Assembly: GCA_965248845.1 (NCBI GenBank)
Contig: CBDFKO010000002.1
Span: 968,063-1,032,062 of the forward strand
Direction: 5' to 3'
Length of the DNA stretch: 64,000 nucleotides
DNA from: Acidobacteriota bacterium
GTDB lineage: Bacteria; Acidobacteriota; UBA890; WLXD01
The notes below the pieces were generated by a model that was given only the letters and a program-made list of their open reading frames with translations, had not been told where the DNA came from and made no database searches. Shown here piece after piece: positions 10,964-62,219 of the stretch; position 1 is the stretch's first letter, and each line of letters begins with the position of its first letter. The position numbers and the translations under genes are program-made.

Positions 10964-11157
10964 AGCAGGCCTTCGTGAAGCGCTGATGGATCTCGCGAGT
11001 ACGTCCTGCGGGCGAGGGCAAGGAGCGCCGACGAGTCGATGCGACAACATCGTCGAGGCGGCGCGACACCGCCACCATCCCGCTCGAACCCTCCGGGCAG
11101 CCGCCTGTACTCCTTGGCGGCGCAACCCGACCCATCACACTTTCACCACGGCCTGCT
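10964..11157. repeat. MITE-like element, copy A (~194 bp), CTAG at both ends with imperfect ~25-bp terminal inverted repeats; its left end supplies the rbfA SD-like GAAGG
   Basis: Left end CTAGcaggccttcgtgaagcgctgatgg; right end ccatcacactttcaccacggcctgCTAG. Internal 40-bp block cgccaccatcccgctcgaaccctccgggcagccgcc is shared with the 18302-18469 element. Confidence 0.65.
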
Positions 11158-11198
11158 AGCGGCCTAACCAGACCCATGAGAGCCTCACCAAGATCCTG

Positions 11199-11480
11199 CT
11201 AGAGGTACTCTGTCTCGACGCGCGTCAGCAGCGCCTCGGCGCTGCGCTCGACCTCGTCGACCAGCTTTTCGAACAACCCCTCCAACCGTGGCCGGCTGTT
11301 GGAAACCGAGACCGCCGCGATACACGAGCGCTGCCACAGGTCCTGGTAGGCAACCTCTGCCACCGCCACATTGAAGCGTGACGTCAGGCGGTGCAGGAGT
11401 CTCTTGATCACGCTGCGCTTGTCCTTGAGGCTGCGACAAGCGGGCAAGTGCAACTCTAGGGTGCAGGCCCCGATAACCAT
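11199..11480 (-). CDS. DUF503 (YlxP-like) protein of the infB operon
   Basis: MVIGACTLELHLPACRSLKDKRSVIKRLL is typical of DUF503; lies between infB and rbfA. Start at ATG 11480; stop TAG lies inside a CTAG. Confidence 0.8.
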   Translation of the reverse strand: MVIGACTLELHLPACRSLKDKRSVIKRLLHRLTSRFNVAVAEVAYQDLWQRSCIAAVSVSNSRPRLEGLFEKLVDEVERSAEALLTRVETEYL

Positions 11481-11502
11481 CACACTTTCACTACGGCCTC
11501 CT
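11457..11502. repeat. Miniature copy (B, ~46 bp) of the MITE family spanning the infB stop and the DUF503 start
   Basis: CTAGggtgcaggcc..ccatcacactttcactacggcctcCTAG; 27 of 29 nt identical to the copy-A right end. It encodes the last residues (SLSRRP) and TAG stop of infB, and the ATG of DUF503. Confidence 0.6.
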
Positions 11503-13641
11503 AGAGAGGCTCGGGCGGATCTCCTTGAGGACGAAGAACTCAATCATGTCGCCGACCTTGACATCGTTGAAGTTCTCGAGCGCGATACCGCACTCGTAAC
11601 CCTGGCCCACCTCGGCGACGTCGTCCTTGAAGCGTCGCAGCGATCTGACCTGCCCCTCGTAGACGATCCTCGAGTCCCGCACCAGACGCACCTTGGCGGC
11701 GCGTGTCACCTTGCCCCCGGTCACGTAGCAGCCGGCGATGGAGCCGATCCGGGGAATGCGGAAAGTCTCGCGCACCTCGGCCTGTCCGAGCTCCTCGTCC
11801 TCGAAGGTGGGGTCGAGCTTACCCACCATCGCCTGCTTGACATCGTCGATGAGCTGGTAAATGACCGTGTAGAGCCGAAGATCGACGCCGGCGCTGGCTG
11901 CGATATCCGCCACGCCACGCTCCGGGCGCACGTTGAATCCCACGATGATCGCCTCGGACGCCGAGGCCAGCAACACATCGTGCTCCGAGACGCCACCGAC
12001 CGCCGCGCGGATGATCTGCACCTCGACTTTGTCGCCTGACAGCTTGCCCAGCGCGTCACGCAGCGTCTCGGTTGAGCCCTGGGTGTCGGCCCTGAGCACG
12101 ACCGAAAGCTTCACCCGACCACCGGCTTCGATGCGCGCGTGCAGATCGGCGAGCGTCAGGCGCGTGCCACCGGCCAATGATTCGCGCCGCTGTTTGTCCC
12201 GCCGCAGTTCGGCCACCTTGCGCGCCAACGACGCTTGCTCGACGACCTGGAAGGAGTCGCCGGCTCCCGGCACGCCGGAGAAGCCGAGCACCTCGACCGC
12301 CGTCGCCGGTCCGGCCTCCTTCACGGGGTTCCCGTAGGAGTCGAACATGGCACGGACCTTGGCGCTCTCGGCGCCCGCGACCAGGCTGTCGGCTACGGCG
12401 AGCGTTCCTGCCTGGACCAGCACCGTCGCGACCGGGCCGCGTCGCCGGTCGAGCTCGGCCTCGAGCACGACGCCATGCGCCGCGATCTTGGGGTTCGCAC
12501 GCAACTCCAAGAGCTCCGACGACAGAATGATCATCTCGAGCAGCCCATCGAGGTTCTCTTTGGTCTTGGCCGAGACCGCAACGCAGACGGTATCGCCGCC
12601 CCAATCCTCCGGCGTCAAGTCACGGTCGACCAGCTGCTGCTTGGCTCGGTCGACGTTGGCCTCGGGACGATCGATCTTGTTGACCGCCACGATGATCGGC
12701 ACGTTGGCCGCGCGGGCGTGGTCGATGGCTTCCACGGTCTGCGGCATGACTCCGTCGTCGGCGGCGAGCACCAGGACCACCAGATCGGTGACCTGTGCGC
12801 CGCGGGCTCGCATTCGCGTGAAGGCCTCGTGGCCCGGGGTATCGATGAAGACGATTCGGTTGCCGTTCCATTCCACCTCGGACGCGCCGATGTGCTGCGT
12901 GATCCCGCCCGCCTCGCGCGCCACAACGTTTGTCTGCCGGATCGAATCGAGCAGATGGGTCTTGCCATGGTCGACGTGCCCCATGATGGTCACGACGGGC
13001 GCTCGGGGTTCGAGATCGTCGCTGCTACCGGTCTCGATTTCGCCGAGCAGGACCTCGTCCCGCCCCAACAACTGCAGGGCCACTCCGTGCTCGGCAGCGA
13101 TCTCCACGGCCACATCGGCATCCAGCGCCTGGTTCACGTTGGCCATGGCACCGCGGCCCATCAATTCGCGGATGATCTCCGCGGGGCTGATTCCCATGGC
13201 CTCGGCCAGTTGCCCGACCGTAGCACCCTCCTCGACCGCTACCGCGCGAGCCGGTGCCGCGGCTGCGGCAGGCTCCGGCTCGACCTCCTGCTCCGGCTCG
13301 GGCTCGGGCTCTGCGTCGGCTGCTGCCCCGGGCTCGGCCTCGGCCTCGGCCTCGAGTTCTCCTTCGGGCTCGGGCTCGGGCTCAACTTCGGGCTCGGGCT
13401 CGGGCCCTACTTCGGGCTCGGCCTCTGCCTCAGGCTCGATCTCAATCTCAGCTTCAGGCCCGGCTACCAGGGGCTCGGGGCCTTGCCCCGATTCTCCGGC
13501 AAGCGCCTGCCGCACGCGAGCCGCTTCCTCCTCGGACACCGAGTTGGCATGGCTCTTGACCGCTACGCCCAGCTCGTTGAGGGCCTGGAGGACCACCTTG
13601 CTCTCGACGTCCAGTTCCCGGGCGATCTCGTAAACCCGCAT
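11491..13641 (-). CDS. infB: Translation initiation factor IF-2
   Basis: 716 aa with the GTPase domain ([17 protein letters not shown]) and IF2 C-terminal domains. Short N-terminal region rich in EP/EA repeats. Confidence 0.95.
13254..13445. repeat. Tandem GC-rich coding repeats (ctcggg/ctcggc units) encoding the [12 protein letters not shown] tract at the IF-2 N-terminus
   Basis: Visible tandem hexamer/dodecamer periodicity inside infB. Confidence 0.6.
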
Positions 13642-28341: not shown

Positions 28342-28384
28342 GAGGGTCTCCCAGGAGGCCGTGGTGAAAGTGCGATGGGTCTGG

Positions 28385-30859
28385 CTACATGAGCGTACGG
28401 GGATCGATGTCGACGACCAGGTCGCGGGGCAACCCACGACCGGCTTCGAGCTCGGCGAGCGAGCTCCGAATGGTACCGACCAGATCATCACGATCCGGAC
28501 TCTTCAGGAGGATTTGCATGCGGTACTTGCCGCGTAACCGGGAGATCGGGGGCGACGCTGGACCGATGACCGCTACCTCGCCGACAACGTTGCGCCGCAG
28601 CGCCGCACCCAGTCGATCGGCCTGTTCCTTGACGTCGGTGGTTACCTTGGCGCGGCATAAACATGCGGCCAGACAGACGAAGGGCGGGTACCTCAGGCGA
28701 CGCCGGAACTCGATCTCACGCGCGTAGAAGGTCTCGAAGTCGTGCTCGAGCGCGGCCTCGATGGCGTAGTGCCCGGGCTGGTGAGCCTGCAGGACCACCT
28801 CGCCGGGCGTGTCTCCCCGCCCGGCGCGTCCAGCCATTTGGGTGAGCAGCTGAAAGGTCCGCTCGGCAGCGCGAAAGTCGGGCATCCCGAGCCCAGCGTC
28901 GGCGCCCACCACGCCGACCAGCGTGACCCCGGGGAAGTCGTGTCCCTTGGCGAGCATCTGGGTGCCGACCAAGACGTCGAGCTGGCGCGAGCCGAAGGCC
29001 GATAGAATCCGCGCGTGCGCTCCCTTCTGGCGTGTCTGATCGGCGTCGAACCTTCCGATTCGAGCCGCTGGGAATGCCTGGGCCAGGGCACCCTGCAACT
29101 GCTCGGTCCCGTGACCCAGCTCGTGTAGCGAATCGGCCCCACACTGCGGGCAGAGACTGACCGCCGGGCGCCGGTAGTCGCAGTAGTGACAGCGCAGGGA
29201 ACGCTCCGCCCGATGCAGCGTCAGGCTGACAGCACATTCGGGACACTCCGGCCGCGCACCGCAGACACGGCAGACCAAGGCGCTAGCATAGCCACGGCGG
29301 TTCAGCAGAATGAGCGCCTGCTCGCCATCGACCAACCGGGCCTCGATCCGTTTCTCGAGGGCGCGGGACACCAGGGTACGACCGCACTCCTTCCACTCGC
29401 GGCGCATGTCGACGAGCGCCACGCTCGGCATCGGGCGCGCCGCAACCCGCCTCGGAAGCAGAGCCGTTCTAAAGCGCCCGGCGCGGGCGCGCCAGGCAGT
29501 GCCCAGTGCGGGCGTCGCCGATCCAAGAACGACCACGGCCCCCTCGCACTCCCCGCGGATCAACGCCACGTCGCGGCCGTGGTAGCGGGGGCGTTCCTCC
29601 TGCTTGTAGGCCGCATCCTGCTCTTCGTCGACGACGACCAGACCGACGTCTGCGAGCGGCGCGAACAGCGCCGAGCGTGGGCCGACCACGACGCGTGCCT
29701 CGCCCCGGCGTAACCGCCACCAGGCGTTGGTCCGTTCGCTGGCCGACAATCCCGAATGTAGAACGGCCACCTGGCTGCCGAAGACCGCCTGCGCCCGCCC
29801 ACGCAGCTGCGGTGTCAGGCCGATCTCCGGAACCAGCAGGATCGCCGAACACCCGGCCTCCAGTGCGGTCCGGGCGGCGCGAAGATAGACCTCGGTCTTG
29901 CCGCTTCCCGTCACCCCGTGGAGCAGCACCGGCACTCGATCGCGTCTGGCCCGGTCGATGTCCCGCAGGGCGGCGCTCTGATCGCGTGTCAGCATGAACG
30001 TGCCTGCCCCGGCAGAGCCGAGGCTCCAGCCGTCGCTTCGGTCCACCGCCCGCTCGAGACGCTCGACCAGGCCCTTGGCTTCGAGCGACCGCAACACGGC
30101 GGCCGACACGCCCGCTTCGCGCATGAGCAGCATCGAGTCCACCTCGCGCTCACCGTGCGCCCGCAGCCACGCCACAGCGCGACGCTGCGCCGGAGCGTGC
30201 CGGGTCGCCTGCCCCTGCGTCGCTTCGTCGAGCCCTGCGGTCAGCCGGATCTCGGTCGCAGTCCGACCGCTGGCCTGGCCGCTCCACTCATCGCGCACCT
30301 CCAGGAGCCCGTCTGCGGCCAGGCGCTGGACCGTCGCCATCGGCGCCACGCCCGGCAGCATGCGGGCAATCTGGCTGACCCGGGTCCAGCGGGAGCCATG
30401 GCGAAGCCCGGCGAGCGCCTGCATGAACCGCCGGGGATCGTGCCCCGCAATGTGCGTCGGTGCGGTGCCAGCCAGGCGTACCCGGGCGCTCTGCTCGGGG
30501 TTGCCGGCGGGCAGCGCGAGCTGCGCCACCACGCCCCAGGATGCCATGTAGCGTTCCGACACCCGGCGCGTCAGATCGAGCATGGCGGAGGTCAGCAGCG
30601 GACGGCGGTCCAGGCAATCGTCGATGTCCCGCAGCCGATCGGCCGACACCTCTGGGGGCGGAGCCTCTACCGTCTCGACCACGAGCGCCACGAGCGAACG
30701 CCCCCCGAAACGCACCCGCACCCTGGCACCCGGGGCAACGAGCCACTCGTGCTGCGGCGGGACCCGGTAGCTGTATAGCCCTTCCGCCGGCACAGGAACC
30801 GCGACGCGGGCGAACAGCCGCCCGACCTCGGGTAGTAGCAGCGCCTGCCGGCCGCTCAC
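28385..30859 (-). CDS. priA: Primosomal protein N' (replication restart helicase PriA)
   Basis: Walker A (LLHGVTGSGKTEVYL), DEEQD box, Cys4 zinc-binding region, and the conserved N-terminal ARVAVPVP...RVRVRFGGRS. Start uncertain (GTG about 30859). Confidence 0.85.
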   Translation of the reverse strand: MSGRQALLLPEVGRLFARVAVPVPAEGLYSYRVPPQHEWLVAPGARVRVRFGGRSLVALVVETVEAPPPEVSADRLRDIDDCLDRRPLLTSAMLDLTRRVSERYMASWGVVAQLALPAGNPEQSARVRLAGTAPTHIAGHDPRRFMQALAGLRHGSRWTRVSQIARMLPGVAPMATVQRLAADGLLEVRDEWSGQASGRTATEIRLTAGLDEATQGQATRHAPAQRRAVAWLRAHGEREVDSMLLMREAGVSAAVLRSLEAKGLVERLERAVDRSDGWSLGSAGAGTFMLTRDQSAALRDIDRARRDRVPVLLHGVTGSGKTEVYLRAARTALEAGCSAILLVPEIGLTPQLRGRAQAVFGSQVAVLHSGLSASERTNAWWRLRRGEARVVVGPRSALFAPLADVGLVVVDEEQDAAYKQEERPRYHGRDVALIRGECEGAVVVLGSATPALGTAWRARAGRFRTALLPRRVAARPMPSVALVDMRREWKECGRTLVSRALEKRIEARLVDGEQALILLNRRGYASALVCRVCGARPECPECAVSLTLHRAERSLRCHYCDYRRPAVSLCPQCGADSLHELGHGTEQLQGALAQAFPAARIGRFDADQTRQKGAHARILSAFGSRQLDVLVGTQMLAKGHDFPGVTLVGVVGADAGLGMPDFRAAERTFQLLTQMAGRAGRGDTPGEVVLQAHQPGHYAIEAALEHDFETFYAREIEFRRRLRYPPFVCLAACLCRAKVTTDVKEQADRLGAALRRNVVGEVAVIGPASPPISRLRGKYRMQILLKSPDRDDLVGTIRSSLAELEAGRGLPRDLVVDIDPRTLM

Positions 30860-40372: not shown

Positions 40373-40534
40373 GAGCAGGCCATGGCGAGGTGTGATGCGT
40401 CGGGGCAAGTAGGTTCTACGGCCGAGGGCAAGGCTCGGCAGAGCCGGCGCAGGCACATCGTCGAGAGCGTGCCGCGAGGCATCTGCGCCCCTGGCGGCGT
40501 AACCAGCCCATCACACTTTCACCACGGCCTGGTA
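40373..40534. repeat. MITE-like element, copy C (~160 bp), in the divergent promoter region between the methyltransferase gene and the glycosyltransferase cluster
   Basis: Left end gagcaggccatggcgaggtgtgatgcg; right end cccatcacactttcaccacggcctggTAG; interior homologous to copy A (cggccgagggcaagg, acatcgtcgag). Confidence 0.6.
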
Positions 40535-40600
40535 GGAGACCGTGCTAGAGTTCAGCCTTCTTGGGGCGCCCCTGCTCCGCCTCCCATCTGCCCGCTCCCG

Positions 40601-56231: not shown

Positions 56232-56870
56232 CTACCGGACCCGCTCCCAGCCGCTGGTAGCGGCGCGGAATCGCCACACGGCGACACGGCCGGTCGCCCC
56301 ATACAAGCGCACCGCCGCAGCGTCCCCGTAAGCGTTGTGGAGATAGACCGTACCGCTACTCGTCGACCCTTCAGGGGCAACGCTCAGCCGATCGAGACGG
56401 CCGAACGCGACGCCATCCGCGGGCCGGGCGCCGGCCAGCGACGGCACCCCGGCCGGTAGACCCGCCACGATCCCGGGAAAGTCGCGTTCGAGACGAAACA
56501 CTCGACCCGTCGGCCTATCGATGTTCCGACGCAGGTCGTCCGATCGGAGGCCGTCCCCATCGCCATCCTCGAGCTCGTGCCATTCCAGACCGTCCACCGT
56601 GTAGAACTGAAGGCCGAAGTGCCGGCCGTGGGCGCTCGCTCTCGCTTGCAAGACGGCGACCTGCGTCGCAATCGCGCCGCAGGCCGACAGGAGCTGTTGG
56701 CTCTGGCGCCATCGGACCCAGGCGGGAGCAGCCGTCTGCACGAGTAGCCCTACGATCGCGAGGCACACGGTCAACTCGAGCAGTGAGACGCCCGCTGCCC
56801 GGAAGGCTACGCCGCCAGCGGCGCGTCCTTGACGGTGGCACCGTAACCAGACCCACCACACTTTCACCAC
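56232..56870 (-). CDS. Orphan prepilin-type N-terminal cleavage/methylation domain protein (GspH/FimT-like minor pseudopilin); 5' end lies within a MITE copy
   Basis: AAG|VSLLELTVCLAIVGLL prepilin motif with Glu at +5; GspH-like C-terminus. No other T2SS/T4P genes nearby. The GTG start falls inside the repeat caccacactttcacc. Confidence 0.55.
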   Translation of the reverse strand: MVKVWWVWLRCHRQGRAAGGVAFRAAGVSLLELTVCLAIVGLLVQTAAPAWVRWRQSQQLLSACGAIATQVAVLQARASAHGRHFGLQFYTVDGLEWHELEDGDGDGLRSDDLRRNIDRPTGRVFRLERDFPGIVAGLPAGVPSLAGARPADGVAFGRLDRLSVAPEGSTSSGTVYLHNAYGDAAAVRLYGATGRVAVWRFRAATSGWERVR

Positions 56871-56879
56871 GGTCTCCTA
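56850..56879. repeat. MITE-family right-end copy (D) immediately left of IS630 copy 2
   Basis: gacccaccacactttcaccacggtctccTA. Confidence 0.6.
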
Positions 56880-58080
56880 GTCTCCTGTAACAGTGGTTCG
56901 CAGCATAAGTCATGAGGCGTGTTGGTCGAGAGTGCGCTGTGCGAACCGGGCGATGGGAGCCAGGATCTCGTCGGCACTCTTGCACCACACGAACGGCTCG
57001 GGGGTCTCGTTGTGCGCATCGATGAACTCCCAGATAGCTGCCACCAGCGCTGCGACACTGCAATGAGATCCGCGGCGGATCTGCTTGTTGGTCAGCTCGG
57101 CGAACCAGCGCTCGACCTGGTTGAGCCACGAGGCATAGGTAGGGGTGAAGTGCAGGTGGAAGCGTGGCCGTTTGGCCAGCCAGGTGTGGATCATCGGGCT
57201 CTTGTGGGTGCCGTAGTTGTCCAGGACCAGATGCACCTGCAGTTGGGCAGGCACCTGCTCATCGATCATGTCCAGGAACTTGCGGAACTCCACCGAGCGA
57301 TGCCGGCGGTGAGTCTGAGCCAGAACGGTTCCCGTCTTGATGTCCAAGGCGGCGAACAACGATGTCGTTCCATGGCGTTGGTAGTCATGCGTGCGCCGCT
57401 CCATCTGGCCGGGCCGCATGGGTAGCAACGGCTGTGTCCGATCCAGTGCCTGGATCTGGCTCTTTTCGTCCACGCACAGCACCACCGCGTGCTCGGGCGG
57501 GTTGACATACAACCCGACGACGTCGCGCACCTTGTCCACCAGTAACGGGTCGGGCGAGAGCTTGAACGTCTCGGTGCGGTGTGGCTTGAGACCAAAGGCA
57601 CGCCAGATCCGGCTGATTGTGGCGTGGCTCAAGCCGGTCGCCTTGGCCATCGACCGGGTGGACCAGTGGGTGGCCCCACGCGGGGTACTCTCCAAGGTGC
57701 GGATGATCACCTGTTCGACCTGGGCGTCCGTGATCTTGCGCGGCGCTCCGGGTCGCGGTTCGTCGTACAGGCCATCGAGACGATCCGACACGAAGCGTGC
57801 CCGCCATTTGCCCACGGTGCTCGGTGACAGCTGCAAGCGCTTGGCCACGGCCTTGTTGTCGTGTCCCTGCGCGCAGGCCAGGACGATGCGCGCGCGGCGT
57901 GCCGGGGCGGGGGCGGTGCGGGATCGATGCGCCAACGAGTTCAGGTGTGCCTCCTCCTGTGGCGTCAGCGTTAAGGGAGCCTTGGGTCGACCGGTGCGCA
58001 TGCGACAATCTCCTGTGCTCAGCTACAGGTTCAACATATGCACACTATAACTTATATCAGTTATTTCTGATACAGGAGAC
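56880..58080. mobile_element. IS630-family insertion sequence (copy 2, 1201 bp) inserted at the TA of a CTAG between two MITE arms
   Basis: TA duplications at 56878-56879 and 58081-58082. Terminal inverted repeat gtctcctgtaacag / gtctcctgtatcag with AT-rich subterminal sequence. Confidence 0.85.
56910..58001 (-). CDS. IS630-family DDE transposase (full length, N-terminal HTH plus DDE core)
   Basis: 363 aa; aligns with the copy-1 transposase over its whole length. Confidence 0.9.
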
Positions 58081-58127
58081 TAGCGGCCCGTGGTGAAAGT
58101 GTGATTAAGCGGCCCGCCGCTTGGTAG
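58081..58127. repeat. MITE-family left-end/micro copy (E) immediately right of IS630 copy 2
   Basis: TAgcggcccgtggtgaaagtgtgatt...cttggTAG. Together with D it forms a 16-bp perfect palindrome, cacactttcaccacgg / ccgtggtgaaagtgtg, centred on the TA that was duplicated. Confidence 0.6.
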
Positions 58128-58158: not shown

Positions 58159-59820
58159 ATGAAATGCGGAACCAGGCTCATGGCGTGGCGCACCCTTCCG
58201 GCGATCGGGGCCTGCCTTCCCCAGCTGGTTGCGGTCGCCGCCTGCGCGTCCCCTGCCCCCATGACCGTGATCGGACTAGTCCCGGCCCCCGCCTCCATGA
58301 CCCTGGGTTCCGGGCTCTTTCGCCTGACGGTCGCGACGGAAGTAGCGCAGCCTCCGCCCGAGCTCGCGAGCGTCGTCGCGCGACAGATCGAGGCGCTGCG
58401 CCGTAGCACCGGGCTGCCACTCGCCGATGCGGCGAACGACGCCTTGGGCATCCGTGTGGTAGCTGACGCGACGCTCCCGGCGGAGGGATACCGACTGCGC
58501 GTGGTGCCGGGCGAGCTGAGCATCGAGGCCTCGACCGAAGCCGGCGTCTTCTACGCCTTCCAGACGCTGCGTCAGCTGCTGCCGCCCGAGATCGAGTCGG
58601 ACACCCCGGTGCAAGGCGTCGACTGGACGATCCCCACGCTCGAGATCGAGGATGCGCCGCGCTTCCCCTACCGGGGCATGCACCTCGACGTTGGCCGCCA
58701 CTTCTTCCCGGTCGAGGTCGTCAAGAAGTACATCGACACCATCGCGCGCTTCAAGTTCAACCGCTTGCACTGGCACCTGACCGAGGATCAGGGCTGGCGT
58801 GTCCAGATCGACGCCTACCCCAGGCTCACCGAAGTCGGCGCCTGGCGCGCTGAGAGTCCCGCCGACGGAAACCGCGAAATCTACACCGGCGACGGCACCC
58901 CGCACGGAGGCTTCTACACCAAGCAGCAGATCCGCGAGGTCGTCGTCTACGCCCAGGAGCGCTTCGTTACCGTGGTCCCCGAGATCGAGATGCCCGGCCA
59001 CGCCACCGCCGCGATCGCTGCCTACCCCGAGCTCGGCTGCACCGACGAGCAGCTCGAGGTCTCCACCATCTGGGGCATCCACGACACCATCTACTGCCCC
59101 CAGGAGGAGACCTTCGAGTTCCTCGAGACCGTGCTCTCGGAGGTCATGGAGCTGTTCCCCTCCGAGTACCTGCACATCGGCGGCGACGAGGTTCCCAAGC
59201 GCCAATGGCAGGAGAGCGAGCTGGCCCAGGAGGTCATTCGCCGCGAGGGCCTGGCCGACGAGGACGAGCTGCAAAGCTGGTTCATCCGCCGCATCGAGCG
59301 CCACCTGCGCGCCAACGGCCGCCGCCTGATCGGCTGGGACGAGATCCTCGAGGGAGGGCTAGCGCCCGACGCCACCGTCATGTCCTGGCGCGGCAACGAG
59401 GGTGGCATCGAGGCCGCCCACCAGGGCCACAACGTCATCATGACCCCCATCGAGCACGCCTACTTCGACTTCTACCAGGGCGACGAGGCCACCGAGCCCC
59501 TGGCCATGGACTGGGCCGGCTTCCCGATCACCCTGCAGACAGTCTACGAGTTCGAGCCGGTTCCGGAGGTCCTGACCGAGCAGCAGGCCGAGCATATCCT
59601 CGGAGCCCAGGGCAACGTCTGGACCGAGTACATCAGCACGCCGGAGTACCTCGAGTACATGGCCTTCCCGCGGGCGCTGCCCATGGCAGAGGTGGTCTGG
59701 AGCCCGCGCGTGAGCCGCGACTGGCCGGGCTTCGTGGAACGGCTTGCAAGCGTGCTGCCGCACCTGGATGCCCTGGAGGTCAGCTACCGCTTTCCTGCGG
59801 AGGTGATCCACGACCGCTGA
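58159..59820 (+). CDS. Beta-N-acetylhexosaminidase, GH20 family, probable lipoprotein
   Basis: GH20 catalytic motifs (HLDVGRHFF, HWHLTEDQGWR, D-E catalytic pair); N-terminal signal with a cysteine. Confidence 0.9.
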   Translation: MKCGTRLMAWRTLPAIGACLPQLVAVAACASPAPMTVIGLVPAPASMTLGSGLFRLTVATEVAQPPPELASVVARQIEALRRSTGLPLADAANDALGIRVVADATLPAEGYRLRVVPGELSIEASTEAGVFYAFQTLRQLLPPEIESDTPVQGVDWTIPTLEIEDAPRFPYRGMHLDVGRHFFPVEVVKKYIDTIARFKFNRLHWHLTEDQGWRVQIDAYPRLTEVGAWRAESPADGNREIYTGDGTPHGGFYTKQQIREVVVYAQERFVTVVPEIEMPGHATAAIAAYPELGCTDEQLEVSTIWGIHDTIYCPQEETFEFLETVLSEVMELFPSEYLHIGGDEVPKRQWQESELAQEVIRREGLADEDELQSWFIRRIERHLRANGRRLIGWDEILEGGLAPDATVMSWRGNEGGIEAAHQGHNVIMTPIEHAYFDFYQGDEATEPLAMDWAGFPITLQTVYEFEPVPEVLTEQQAEHILGAQGNVWTEYISTPEYLEYMAFPRALPMAEVVWSPRVSRDWPGFVERLASVLPHLDALEVSYRFPAEVIHDR

Positions 59821-59821
59821 C

Positions 59822-59840
59822 AGTAGTGCTCTGTAACAGA
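59822..59840. repeat. Solo IS630-like terminal inverted repeat (TAgtgctctgtaacag) at the hexosaminidase stop
   Basis: Resembles the IS630 copy-2 end and the 18302 MITE end. A weak AT-rich match (cactatatcagtt) to the IS630 subterminal sequence lies near 60425. Confidence 0.35.
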
Positions 59841-59873
59841 TGTTGATGGACCCGTGCCCACTGGCGGCCTCGC

Positions 59874-60185
59874 TTACCGAGCCATTGCCCGTGCGATGTC
59901 CTTCTTCGAGGCTCCCAGCGCCAGCATCGACCGCGTCAGCAGATCCAGCGACACGGACGGATCTCCAACCTCGATCTTCGCTACACGCGATTGGCTCGAG
60001 CCGAGTCGTTCGGCCAGCTGAACCTGCGTCAGCTTGCTCTGGCGCCGCAGCGACCTCACGGCTTCGCTGAGCTGTAGCTTGAGCTCGACGTAGGCCGCGT
60101 CTTCAGGGCCGAGGTCGAGAAACTCGGCGACGCTTCCCTCCTCCCAGCCTTTGTCTCGCAGCCGATTCCACTTAGCTCTATCCAT
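59874..60185 (-). CDS. HTH XRE-family antitoxin (HigA-like)
   Basis: KLTQVQLAERLGSSQSRVAKIEVGDPSVSLDLL helix-turn-helix; its start overlaps the toxin fragment. Confidence 0.75.
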   Translation of the reverse strand: MDRAKWNRLRDKGWEEGSVAEFLDLGPEDAAYVELKLQLSEAVRSLRRQSKLTQVQLAERLGSSQSRVAKIEVGDPSVSLDLLTRSMLALGASKKDIARAMAR

Positions 60186-60424
60186 CGTCGTACTCCCGGA
60201 GACGGCGCCGGCAGTTCCGGATCACGCGTGATGCGCAGCTCGTGGCAGTTGCGCCCGACCCTGGGAATGGGCCGCGACCACGGCATCGAGAGACGCTCAC
60301 CCTTCTGCAGCTTCCGCAACAAGACGCCCGCCTCGATGCGTCCTGCAGCGGGAAACGGCGGCGTCTTGATCTCGCCCGCGAGCCACCGGAGCAGCCTTTC
60401 ATTAGGCACTGCAAACCTCGACAC
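60185..60424 (-). pseudogene. Truncated HigB-like (RelE/ParE-superfamily) toxin; N-terminal ~75 aa only
   Basis: FPAAGRIEAGVLLRKLQKGERLSMPWSRPIPRVGRNCHELRI matches the HigB-type toxin N-terminal half. The conserved C-terminal catalytic half is absent in all frames; the reading frame runs on into higA. Confidence 0.5.
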
Positions 60425-60447
60425 TATATCAGTTTCGACATATCACG

Positions 60448-60811
60448 GTGAATCACGCAGGACGCGGCCCGACCGGCCTCCTACTTCATGAGACGGCCAT
60501 GGTCACTAGGATTGCCGCCCGTGCCCCGCTGGTTCGCTTGCACCTCGAGGACGGTCTGAAACGCGGAGAGCCCGTCTACGAGGAGGTTAGGACCACCACG
60601 GTCCGCGTCGCGGTCTGGTGCCCCGCGTCTGCCGACGATCTCGGCAGCCAAGCTCCTGAGGATCCTCCGGACGCACGGCTTCGACGTCACTCGTCAGAGT
60701 GGCAGCCATCTCGTGCTCCGGCACGCGGACGGGCGCCGACCGCTGACTACGACTCCGCCGAGAAGAAGATCTCGACGACCGACTTGGGAGGCCGCGGGGT
60801 GCGTCGGCTGA
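60448..60811 (+). pseudogene. Remnants of a hicB-hicA-like toxin-antitoxin pair (HicB C-terminal fragment, then a HicA-like mRNA interferase lacking a start codon)
   Basis: HicB-like LHLEDGLKRGEPV (frame of 60448). HicA-like LLRILRTHGFDVTRQSGSHLVLRHADGRR (frame +1, 60629-60811) with no ATG/GTG/TTG start; its 3' end overlaps the transporter gene. Confidence 0.4.
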
Positions 60812-62219
60812 CAGTCACCACGAGCGCCAGGGACACGAACGGGCCCACGAGCGCCGGCCAGATGCCGGCGATCCAGTTGTCGAGCGTCCCGTGCGTCAGG
60901 TAGCCGGCCAGGTACCAGAGCACGCACGCGGCGGCGCCACCGAGCATTCCGGCGAGCGCCCCTTCGCGGGTGGCGCGCGGCCACCACAATCCGAGCAGGA
61001 ACGGGAAGGTGAACGCCGAGGCCATCAGGCTGAACGACATCGTGACGATCCACAGGATCGCCGCCGGCGGATCGACCGCCACCAGCATGGCCAGCGCGCC
61101 GATACCCAGCGTCGTCCACCGGGCGATCCGCATGCCGGTGGCCTCGTCGATCTGGCCGCCGTGGCGTGGCAGGTAGAGATTCTCGACGACCAGCGAGCCG
61201 GCCAGCAGCAGAATCGAGTCGATCGTCGACATGGTAGCGCCGAGCACCGCGGCCACGATGATGCCGCCGAGAGCCGGGGGCAGTAGATTCGCGACCAGCG
61301 TGGGCAAGGCCAGGTCGGGCCGATCCAGGGTCGGTAGCAACACACCGGAGGCAATAGCGATGAGCGTCGCGCAAACGTAGATGAAGGCCGAGAAGGTCAC
61401 CGAATAGACCATCGCCGTCTTCAGCGTACGATCGTCCTCGGGAATCAGGAAACGGGTCACTGCTGCCGGCGCGCCGCCGATCTGGAAGAACCCCCAGACC
61501 AGGAACGAGGAAACCACCCAGAGCGCCGGCATCTCGCCCACGAAGCGGAGCCCCTCCGGGTTGATCTCGCCGTATTGACGGTGCATCTCGGCGAAGCCAC
61601 CCGCGGCACCGATCGCGGTCGGCGCCAGCACCGCGAAGCCGACGATCATGATCGTCCCCTGGATCAGGTCGGTCCAGGCCACCGCGTGCATGCCGCCGAT
61701 CACGGTGTACAGGATGACGATGCCGCCGAAGAGCGCGAGCGCCGCCAGGTACGGCATCCCCAGCAGCACCTCGAAGGCGTTGGCAGCGGCCTTGAGCTGA
61801 GCGCCGATGAGCGGAACGAAGGCGACCAGCATGATCGTCGCCGCGACGCGTCCGGGCCCTCTGCCGTAGTAGCGCGCCTCGAACACGTCGACCAGCGTGG
61901 TGCACTCGATCTTGGCCGCGACCCGTCGCAGCCGATCGCCCAGCAGGACGTAGGCGAACCAGGGCGCCGCCGCCGAGGCCACGCCGCCGGGCGAGAAGTT
62001 GTAGCCGAGCAGTCGCTCCGTCCCCACCGCGCCCATGTAGGAGCTGCCGCTCATCTGGGTCGCCGAGTAGGAAAACCCGATGGTGCCGGGGCCGAGCTTG
62101 CCACGGGCCAGGAAGTAGTCGGCGCGGCTGCGCTGCCGGCGGTTGAACCAGATCGCCAGCCCCATCAGCGCACCGAAGTAGAGCACGAGGATGACGGTGT
62201 ACTGCCCGGTGGCGCCCAC
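60747..62219 (-). CDS. Sodium:solute symporter family (SSF) transporter
   Basis: 490 aa, about 13 TM segments, SSF signature region. Confidence 0.85.
   Translation of the reverse strand: MGATGQYTVILVLYFGALMGLAIWFNRRQRSRADYFLARGKLGPGTIGFSYSATQMSGSSYMGAVGTERLLGYNFSPGGVASAAAPWFAYVLLGDRLRRVAAKIECTTLVDVFEARYYGRGPGRVAATIMLVAFVPLIGAQLKAAANAFEVLLGMPYLAALALFGGIVILYTVIGGMHAVAWTDLIQGTIMIVGFAVLAPTAIGAAGGFAEMHRQYGEINPEGLRFVGEMPALWVVSSFLVWGFFQIGGAPAAVTRFLIPEDDRTLKTAMVYSVTFSAFIYVCATLIAIASGVLLPTLDRPDLALPTLVANLLPPALGGIIVAAVLGATMSTIDSILLLAGSLVVENLYLPRHGGQIDEATGMRIARWTTLGIGALAMLVAVDPPAAILWIVTMSFSLMASAFTFPFLLGLWWPRATREGALAGMLGGAAACVLWYLAGYLTHGTLDNWIAGIWPALVGPFVSLALVVTVSRRTPRPPKSVVEIFFSAES

Follow-up and report, generated by a model that had tools for sequence, protein, structure and literature searches.

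A putative remnant of two type II toxin-antitoxin modules between convergent genes of an Acidobacteriota bacterium

Two toxin-antitoxin modules in a short intergenic islet

We analyzed a stretch of 64,000 nucleotides (nt) from an Acidobacteriota bacterium (lineage UBA890; WLXD01; assembly GCA_965248845.1, contig CBDFKO010000002.1, positions 968,063 to 1,032,062 of the forward strand), hereafter referred to as the window, with a focus on an islet of ~0.9 kb at positions 59822-60746. The islet lies between two convergent genes, one encoding a GH20 beta-hexosaminidase on its left (58159-59820, plus strand; PF00728, E=2.8e-121) and the other a sodium:solute symporter on its right (60747-62219, minus strand; PF00474, E=1e-67; hereafter the transporter). 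Its G+C content is ~63%, compared with 66-71% in the flanks. The islet carries an intact antitoxin gene and a toxin pseudogene of HigBA type on the minus strand (module 1), as well as remnants of a hicB-hicA pair on the plus strand (module 2). Besides those of the two modules, no domain-bearing open reading frames were found in the islet with Pfam, its remaining reading frames gave no Pfam match, and a search of the window against Rfam returned no match. We consider it very probable that two type II toxin-antitoxin modules, inserted between two convergent 3' ends, have eroded to form this islet.

The antitoxin gene of module 1 (59874-60185, minus strand) encodes an intact HigA-like protein of 103 amino acids (aa) with a helix-turn-helix (HTH) domain of the XRE/Cro type, as found in HigBA antitoxins. 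Matches to HTH_31 (E=3.9e-10), HTH_3 (E=1.2e-9) and HTH_37 (E=1.6e-8) were all above the Pfam gathering cut-offs, which confirms the intact HTH antitoxin of the original prediction, made from the letters of the window without database searches. Homologues (n = 2426) are mostly 102-110 aa long, and comparison with PDB gave weak matches to HipB and HigA2. A 94%-identical antitoxin (P0002) is present on six contigs (L081-L086), and in five of these (L081-L085) it lies directly behind a 109-aa PF05973 (Gp49) gene with a stop/start overlap of 8 nt; the sixth, L086, is a 558-nt contig on which the gene upstream of the antitoxin runs off the end. The ratio of nonsynonymous to synonymous substitution rates (dN/dS) of the antitoxin is 0.087 against L082 and ranges from 0.09 to 0.13 across L082, L088 and L087. 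Relatives of the antitoxin on phage contigs were distant HTH proteins only.

Upstream of the antitoxin lies a pseudogene of a Gp49/HigB-type toxin (60178-60409, minus strand), which was delineated by DNA alignment and tblastn against intact relatives. Its start codon, GTG at 60409, corresponds in the alignment to the ATG of the intact relative. Codons 1-60 are preserved down to 60230 and followed by a single stray base at 60229, and codons 94-109 are preserved at 60228-60181 in a different frame, with the former stop codon at 60180-60178. The net loss of 98 nt, equivalent to codons 61-93, is a clean internal deletion plus frameshift. When the window DNA is aligned with L082, L081 and L085, the gap falls at columns 298-395, with 83-92% identity on either side. 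Using the intact toxin as query, tblastn recovered residues 4-60 at 60400-60230 (84% identity) and residues 94-109 at 60228-60181 (94% identity). With its reading frame broken by the deletion and frameshift, no toxin can be made; the shifted frame extends to 60056 across the antitoxin gene. The toxin had originally been described as truncated to its N-terminal half. It is indeed a dead remnant, but the lesion is internal and the last 16 codons survive. Within the lost segment are the conserved blocks W-R-I-x-Y and F-x-K-K-T-x-K-T-P. In the sequence of L082, the 6-nt repeat CGCATC is found at both edges of the segment equivalent to the deletion, which fits a deletion of the slippage type.

The toxin fragments by themselves had no Pfam match at E<=1. 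The intact orthologue matches PF05973 (E=4.7e-12, 46.2 bits, cut-off 23.9), as does a toxin repaired in silico from the window pieces and the middle of the orthologue (E=2.2e-12, 47.3 bits). NCBIfam had no matching model for the toxin, HicA or HicB. Among annotated toxins, the closest is a 'RelE/ParE family toxin' from a Nostoc plasmid (62% identity), and the closest solved structure by sequence is HigB 6af3, at a marginal E=0.31. Toxins with a GP49 domain are members of the HigB family within the RelE superfamily and are encoded by the first gene of the operon (PMC5906591). Like the GP49-domain HigBA systems of Acinetobacter baumannii (HigBA) and Mycobacterium tuberculosis (HigBA2 and HigBA3; PMC5906591), module 1 has the reverse order, with a Gp49-type toxin first and an XRE-HTH antitoxin second. 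The intact orthologue of its toxin matches PF05973, and 8 nt (60178-60185) are common to the toxin end and the antitoxin start, a layout shared with L081-L085. Unlike these systems, the toxin core is deleted, and similarity to solved HigB is marginal. A tblastn search with the intact toxin found no other Gp49 toxin within the window. The antitoxin is accordingly an orphan: full-length, with a predicted promoter of its own and no functional cognate toxin.

The N-terminal part of the toxin has a dN/dS of 0.205 against L082 and is free of stop codons, so the deletion probably occurred recently compared with the divergence from L082. The final 48 nt of the toxin gene, which contain the GGGAG ribosome-binding site of the antitoxin, show a single difference from L082, though elsewhere in the operon synonymous divergence (dS) amounts to 0.3-0.4. 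In a library of 1.84 billion proteins, the N-terminal fragment had 480 homologues at E<=1e-3, and in all 150 listed matches homology stops at residue 65-68. Many of the 150 best cluster representatives (P0121-P0270) keep the N-terminal 60 residues and then continue into an unrelated tail. A recognizable C-terminal half is present in 57, an unrelated tail of at least 35 residues in 33 and a short protein in 60, the aberrant classes being inflated by clustering and contig ends. Frameshifted or internally deleted Gp49 toxin genes may be common in public assemblies.

A single promoter-like site was detected by promoter scan between 59700 and 60900, where shuffled sequences give 0.0: TTCACC-18 nt-TATAGT with an extended -10 element (60423-60452, minus strand), the predicted promoter of the operon. 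An imperfect operator-like palindrome, TATGTC-N6-GATATA, at 60442-60425 overlaps its -10 box, and the palindrome columns ATGTC..CTGA.AT are invariant across five lineages. Downstream, a GAGG ribosome-binding site precedes the GTG at 60409, aligned to the start codon of the intact relative. The upstream part of this higBA cassette (60453-60504, minus strand) is still similar to L082 and L102 (the GGCCGTCTnAnGA block) and ends where the hicB remnant starts; the blastn match itself stops at 60441.

Module 2 starts with the hicB remnant (60505-60618, plus strand), which was found by tblastn and retains the C-terminal 40 codons (residues 34-73), without the N-terminal 33 codons, the start and a promoter. 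The HicB of L089 aligns over residues 34-73 with 60505-60615 of the window at 65% identity (48.9 bits), and that of L090 at 55% identity. The 73-aa HicB of these relatives matches PF15919 (E=3.1e-10), and a HicB-like C-terminal fragment preceding hicA, as anticipated in the original prediction, is thereby supported. The hicA remnant (60618-60739, plus strand), recognized by PF07927 and by DNA of relatives, comprises codons 1-41 of 74. A frame through 60623-60760 (plus strand) scores 33.8 bits against the HicA_toxin profile (PF07927; cut-off 27, E=3.6e-8), and the match is confined to profile positions 3-38 of 58. This frame has no in-frame start and stays open to 60811 over the 3' end of the transporter gene, in full agreement with the earlier description. 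The profile searches proposed at that time have thus succeeded in part: HicA was matched directly and Gp49 through the orthologue or the repaired gene, and the toxin and HicB fragments on their own remained unmatched.

The nearest full-length relatives of hicA encode 72-74 aa, the best being the 74-aa P0271 (79% identity). In L089 and L090, hicA is preceded by the 73-aa PF15919 HicB-like antitoxin with an overlap of 1-4 nt, and DNA homology of the window to L089 extends over 60533-60742 (78%). The junction of the two genes reads TGATGAATCCGCG in L089 versus TGGTG-CCCCGCG in the window. An A-to-G change at 60618 converted the hicB stop from TGA to TGG (60616-60618) and the hicA start from ATG to GTG, and codon 2 of hicA has a 1-nt deletion. 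In addition, hicA is cut after Arg41, with codons 42-74 gone. On these lesions, neither gene has kept an intact reading frame and both are evidently dead. The window remnants resemble the HicBA systems of L089 and L090, with a short PF15919 HicB upstream of hicA, in their hicB-then-hicA order, their TGATG stop-start overlap and their identity (HicB 65%, HicA 79%). They differ in that both genes are destroyed, the adjacent hicB persisting as a remnant only. The gene order of E. coli hicAB is the opposite, with hicA first. Loss of the hicB stop gives rise to an open frame of 151 aa (60448-60903, plus strand) that reads through the hicA remnant in the wrong frame and continues antisense into the transporter gene. 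No domain was matched in this frame, which is probably meaningless.

Borders of the islet and its history

The islet is bordered by an 11-base-pair (bp) direct repeat, CGACCGCTGAC. Copy 1 (59811-59821) holds the hexosaminidase stop codon TGA (59818-59820). The first three nucleotides of copy 2 (60737-60747) are the last codon of the hicA remnant, and its last nucleotide lies in the transporter stop (60747-60749). Exactly two copies are present in the 64-kb window (0.12 expected), and an exact match of at least 11 nt between two 30-nt windows arose in 5-8 of 10,000 trials (p about 5-8e-4). The repeat fits an insertion scar, produced by target duplication or by a microhomology-guided single crossover. 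Both models predict one empty site, ...CACGACCGCTGACTACGACTCC..., in which the 11-mer occurs once and the hexosaminidase stop directly adjoins that of the transporter. Among relatives, the block of a dipeptidase gene and the transporter gene is conserved, and synteny breaks exactly at the transporter stop, with a different downstream region each time. The C-terminus of the transporter (…EIFFSAES) is similar to those of its relatives and, on this resemblance, appears native. Taken together, the 11-bp repeat at both borders and the synteny break at the transporter stop point to an insertion, and the old, eroding mobile insertion proposed originally is consistent with these observations and with the decay established by homology.

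The nearest relatives of the flanking genes come from metagenome-assembled genomes of Gemmatimonadota. We compared 80 genome loci with a hexosaminidase (best identity 61%), none of which has the transporter nearby. Similarly, neither the hexosaminidase nor the islet lies downstream of the transporter in 7 metagenome loci (66-75% identity) or in the best database relative (82%), which share only the upstream dipeptidase block with the window. In six other loci containing the cassette, flanking direct repeats were found at chance level only, so such repeats are not a general mark of this cassette. Two near-identical contigs with an orthologous transporter differ by a 697-bp AbrB-PIN (vapBC-like) cassette downstream of the transporter gene, present in L091 (6679-7375) and missing from L096 (1271-1272), with a junction microhomology of just 2 nt. 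The 3' flank of the transporter is a recurrent landing place for toxin-antitoxin cassettes.

The left flank of the islet (59822-59873) bears on the history of the two modules. Positions 59827-59871 align with the flank after the antitoxin stop in L082 (p about 0.01). In L082, the antitoxin stop is directly followed by what is left of a hicA gene on the opposite strand, namely codons 1-10 (2193-2217). These 25 nt are identical to the hicA start of the window at 23 positions (p<0.0005), and the L082 flank also resembles the hicBA junction of L089 (p=0.002). As the L082 flank is a hicA stub, the joining of the higBA cassette to a hicA 5' stub predates the divergence of the window and L082 copies. 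The joint history of the higBA cassette and the hicBA module is, to judge from these alignments, older than both present locations. Compared directly with hicBA junctions, the left flank of the window reaches only p=0.10-0.37. Its probable identity as a hicA 5' remnant is therefore significant only indirectly, through L082. On this assignment, hicA 5' sequence is found on both sides of the higBA cassette in the window, which could reflect a long target duplication, a circle integrated by a single crossover or several modules once arranged in an array. In L082, a 62-bp direct repeat (1076-1137 and 2249-2310, 89% identity) flanks the intact higBA cassette region, and its first copy is the ribosome-binding site and 5' region of a neighboring M48-like peptidase gene.

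Loss of the toxin in related lineages

To place the window among its relatives, we considered seven lineages with antitoxins 77-100% identical to that of the window, all retrieved with the antitoxin as query. Two of them (the P0002 and P0010 groups) have an intact toxin, as apparently does L102. In the other five (the window, L088, L087, L101 and L103/L104), the toxin was destroyed independently and the antitoxin kept. The lesions are distinct in each: the 98-nt deletion in the window, loss of all but the last 12 codons in L088 and of all but the last 10 in L087, a frameshift near codon 41 in L101 and a deletion of the first 49 codons in L103/L104. The promoter-operator is retained in three of the five toxin-less lineages, namely the window, L088 and L087. 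In L088 (276-636) and L087 (3920-4312), hardly any sequence separates the TATGTC-N6-GATATA operator and the promoter from the last 10-12 codons of the toxin. L088 also carries a second, complete Gp49 and HTH pair immediately after the toxin-less operon.

Erosion of chromosomal toxin-antitoxin systems has been surveyed in other bacteria. In Photorhabdus, pseudogenization affected the toxin only (N = 185), both genes (N = 186) or the antitoxin only (N = 8) (PMC13617665), and in Klebsiella orphan antitoxins are abundant and an anti-addiction role has been proposed (PMC7192599). The window matches this published erosion path, in which the toxin is lost first. As in the Photorhabdus (PMC13617665) and Klebsiella (PMC7192599) systems, a pseudogenized toxin is found next to an intact antitoxin, a second module has both genes eroded, and the islet lies in a variable region. 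In contrast to those cases, the host appears to belong to a different phylum, and deletions that spare the promoter-operator are documented in three lineages.

Explanations for the islet

Under the reading that we favor, module 1 is a reverse-order operon of a Gp49/HigB-type toxin and an XRE-HTH antitoxin on the minus strand, in which the 98-nt deletion removed the toxin core (codons 61-93), shifted the frame and abolished toxin production. The damage spared the promoter and its palindromic operator, the last 16 toxin codons with the ribosome-binding site of the antitoxin, and the antitoxin gene itself. Its present state is most likely that of a self-repressed orphan antitoxin binding its own operator, which would either await decay or be retained, perhaps because it confers immunity to related toxins that arrive from outside. 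Module 2 is a plus-strand hicB-hicA pair with both genes destroyed. We infer expression of the antitoxin, its DNA binding and the mode of insertion from these sequence features. A chromosomal antitoxin that is expressed without an active toxin of its own could neutralize related toxins of incoming mobile elements (PMC2654758, PMC7354431). In contrast to that anti-addiction model, no related incoming toxin is known for the genome of the window. It is plausible that the orphan antitoxin still works, as a regulator or in anti-addiction, and such a role fits the recurrence of orphan antitoxins that keep their promoter-operator.

Some observations weigh against this picture. The synteny comparison suggested in the original prediction located the break at the transporter stop, but the hexosaminidase and transporter genes were adjacent in no relative and no empty site was found among them. 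The best of these relatives are distant (transporter 82%, hexosaminidase 61% identity), which leaves the 11-bp repeat to carry the insertion model by itself. The closest relative is at a dS of ~0.3, and most of this divergence probably predates the deletion, obscuring selection on the antitoxin after toxin loss. Moreover, translation of the antitoxin might be reduced by the shifted toxin frame, which extends over 130 nt of the antitoxin gene. Finally, a search based on the antitoxin leaves lineages that lost both genes invisible.

The alternative that concerns the antitoxin most directly is that it has no remaining function and is the last piece still unmutated after a recent loss of the toxin, a possibility that we take seriously without thinking it the likely one. 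The stop-free N-terminal part of the toxin and its dN/dS suggest a recent deletion, the antitoxin may owe its low dN/dS to the time before toxin loss, and published surveys report both genes pseudogenized as often as the toxin alone. Against it, five independent lineages keep a full-length antitoxin after toxin loss, and in three of them the deletions spare exactly the promoter-operator and ribosome-binding site, although this pattern may partly reflect the antitoxin-based search. At the other extreme, the antitoxin clade would repeatedly become a stand-alone, self-repressed gene, implying active retention, whether to provide immunity to incoming Gp49 toxins, to act as a domesticated regulator or in some other role. 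The deletions may then excise the toxin and spare the promoter-operator and ribosome-binding site, as in the window, L088 and L087. Coupled to this idea is a second one, that the cassette moves as a unit through circle formation or microhomology-guided integration and leaves variable direct repeats, which may include the 11 bp of the window, the 62 bp of L082 and the duplicated hicA 5' segment on either side of the cassette. We put forward this pair of ideas tentatively and, taken jointly, regard it as rather unlikely.

Other explanations concern the origin of the islet. It could be the leftover of a larger ancestral island trimmed by deletions, with the 11-bp repeat a coincidence: the region downstream of the transporter is variable in all relatives, the hicBA pair is cut at both ends, and the hexosaminidase adjoins the transporter in no relative. 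We find this improbable, since an exact match of such length between the two stop-codon neighborhoods is rare by chance and only one of two repeats would survive a deletion between them. The original prediction had instead placed a 16-bp IS630-like end at the islet boundary, and an IS630-family element is indeed present 1.7 kb from the islet (56857-58103), ending 55 nt upstream of the hexosaminidase start. It encodes a 363-aa DDE_3 transposase (minus strand) and carries 37-nt inverted repeats with 89% complementarity. Delivery or rearrangement of the islet by this element, with 59824-59839 as a leftover solo terminal repeat, is very unlikely. The 16-mer at this position matches the inverted repeat at 13 of 16 nt, including an exact 9-mer, but the match falls on repeat positions 22-37, and the outer 21 nt, terminal bases included, have no counterpart at 59803-59823. 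About 0.12 chance matches with up to three mismatches are expected per window, and four other copies of the outer part of the repeat in the window lack the inner 16-mer. The same stretch aligns with the L082 cassette flank, where no IS630 is near. On these grounds, we find the solo end unsupported. Transposition of IS630 duplicates a TA dinucleotide, to which the 11-bp flanking repeat does not conform. An assembly or sequencing artefact as the source of the toxin deletion has a negligible chance of being correct: the gap is clean, lies within sequence of 83-92% identity and is unlike homopolymer-type errors, and a single 4.36-Mb contig is the source of both proteins, antitoxin and transporter, that match at 100% identity in the protein collection.

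On its own, an eroded islet of two toxin-antitoxin modules is of little consequence, being a well-resolved example of a known decay path in a poorly studied lineage, with exact lesions defined for four genes. The series formed by the window, L088, L087, L101 and L103/L104 provides a test set for whether orphan antitoxins are selected or mere survivors, and the 11-bp flanking repeat yields a testable prediction of the empty site.

A repeated motif of ~35-40 nt, (T)AACCAGACCCAT-CACACTTTCACCACGGCCTCCTAG, was also observed in the window, in six copies where none is expected by chance: 11124-11160, 11468-11505, 40505-40535 and 56845-56880 on the plus strand, and 28354-28390 and 58083-58103 on the minus strand. 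Two of these are the outer part of the IS630-like inverted repeats and the remaining four are isolated copies near gene ends. The motif has no counterpart in Rfam or in any of the 171 fetched loci, and may be a genome-specific solo end of an insertion sequence, a miniature element or a regulatory repeat.

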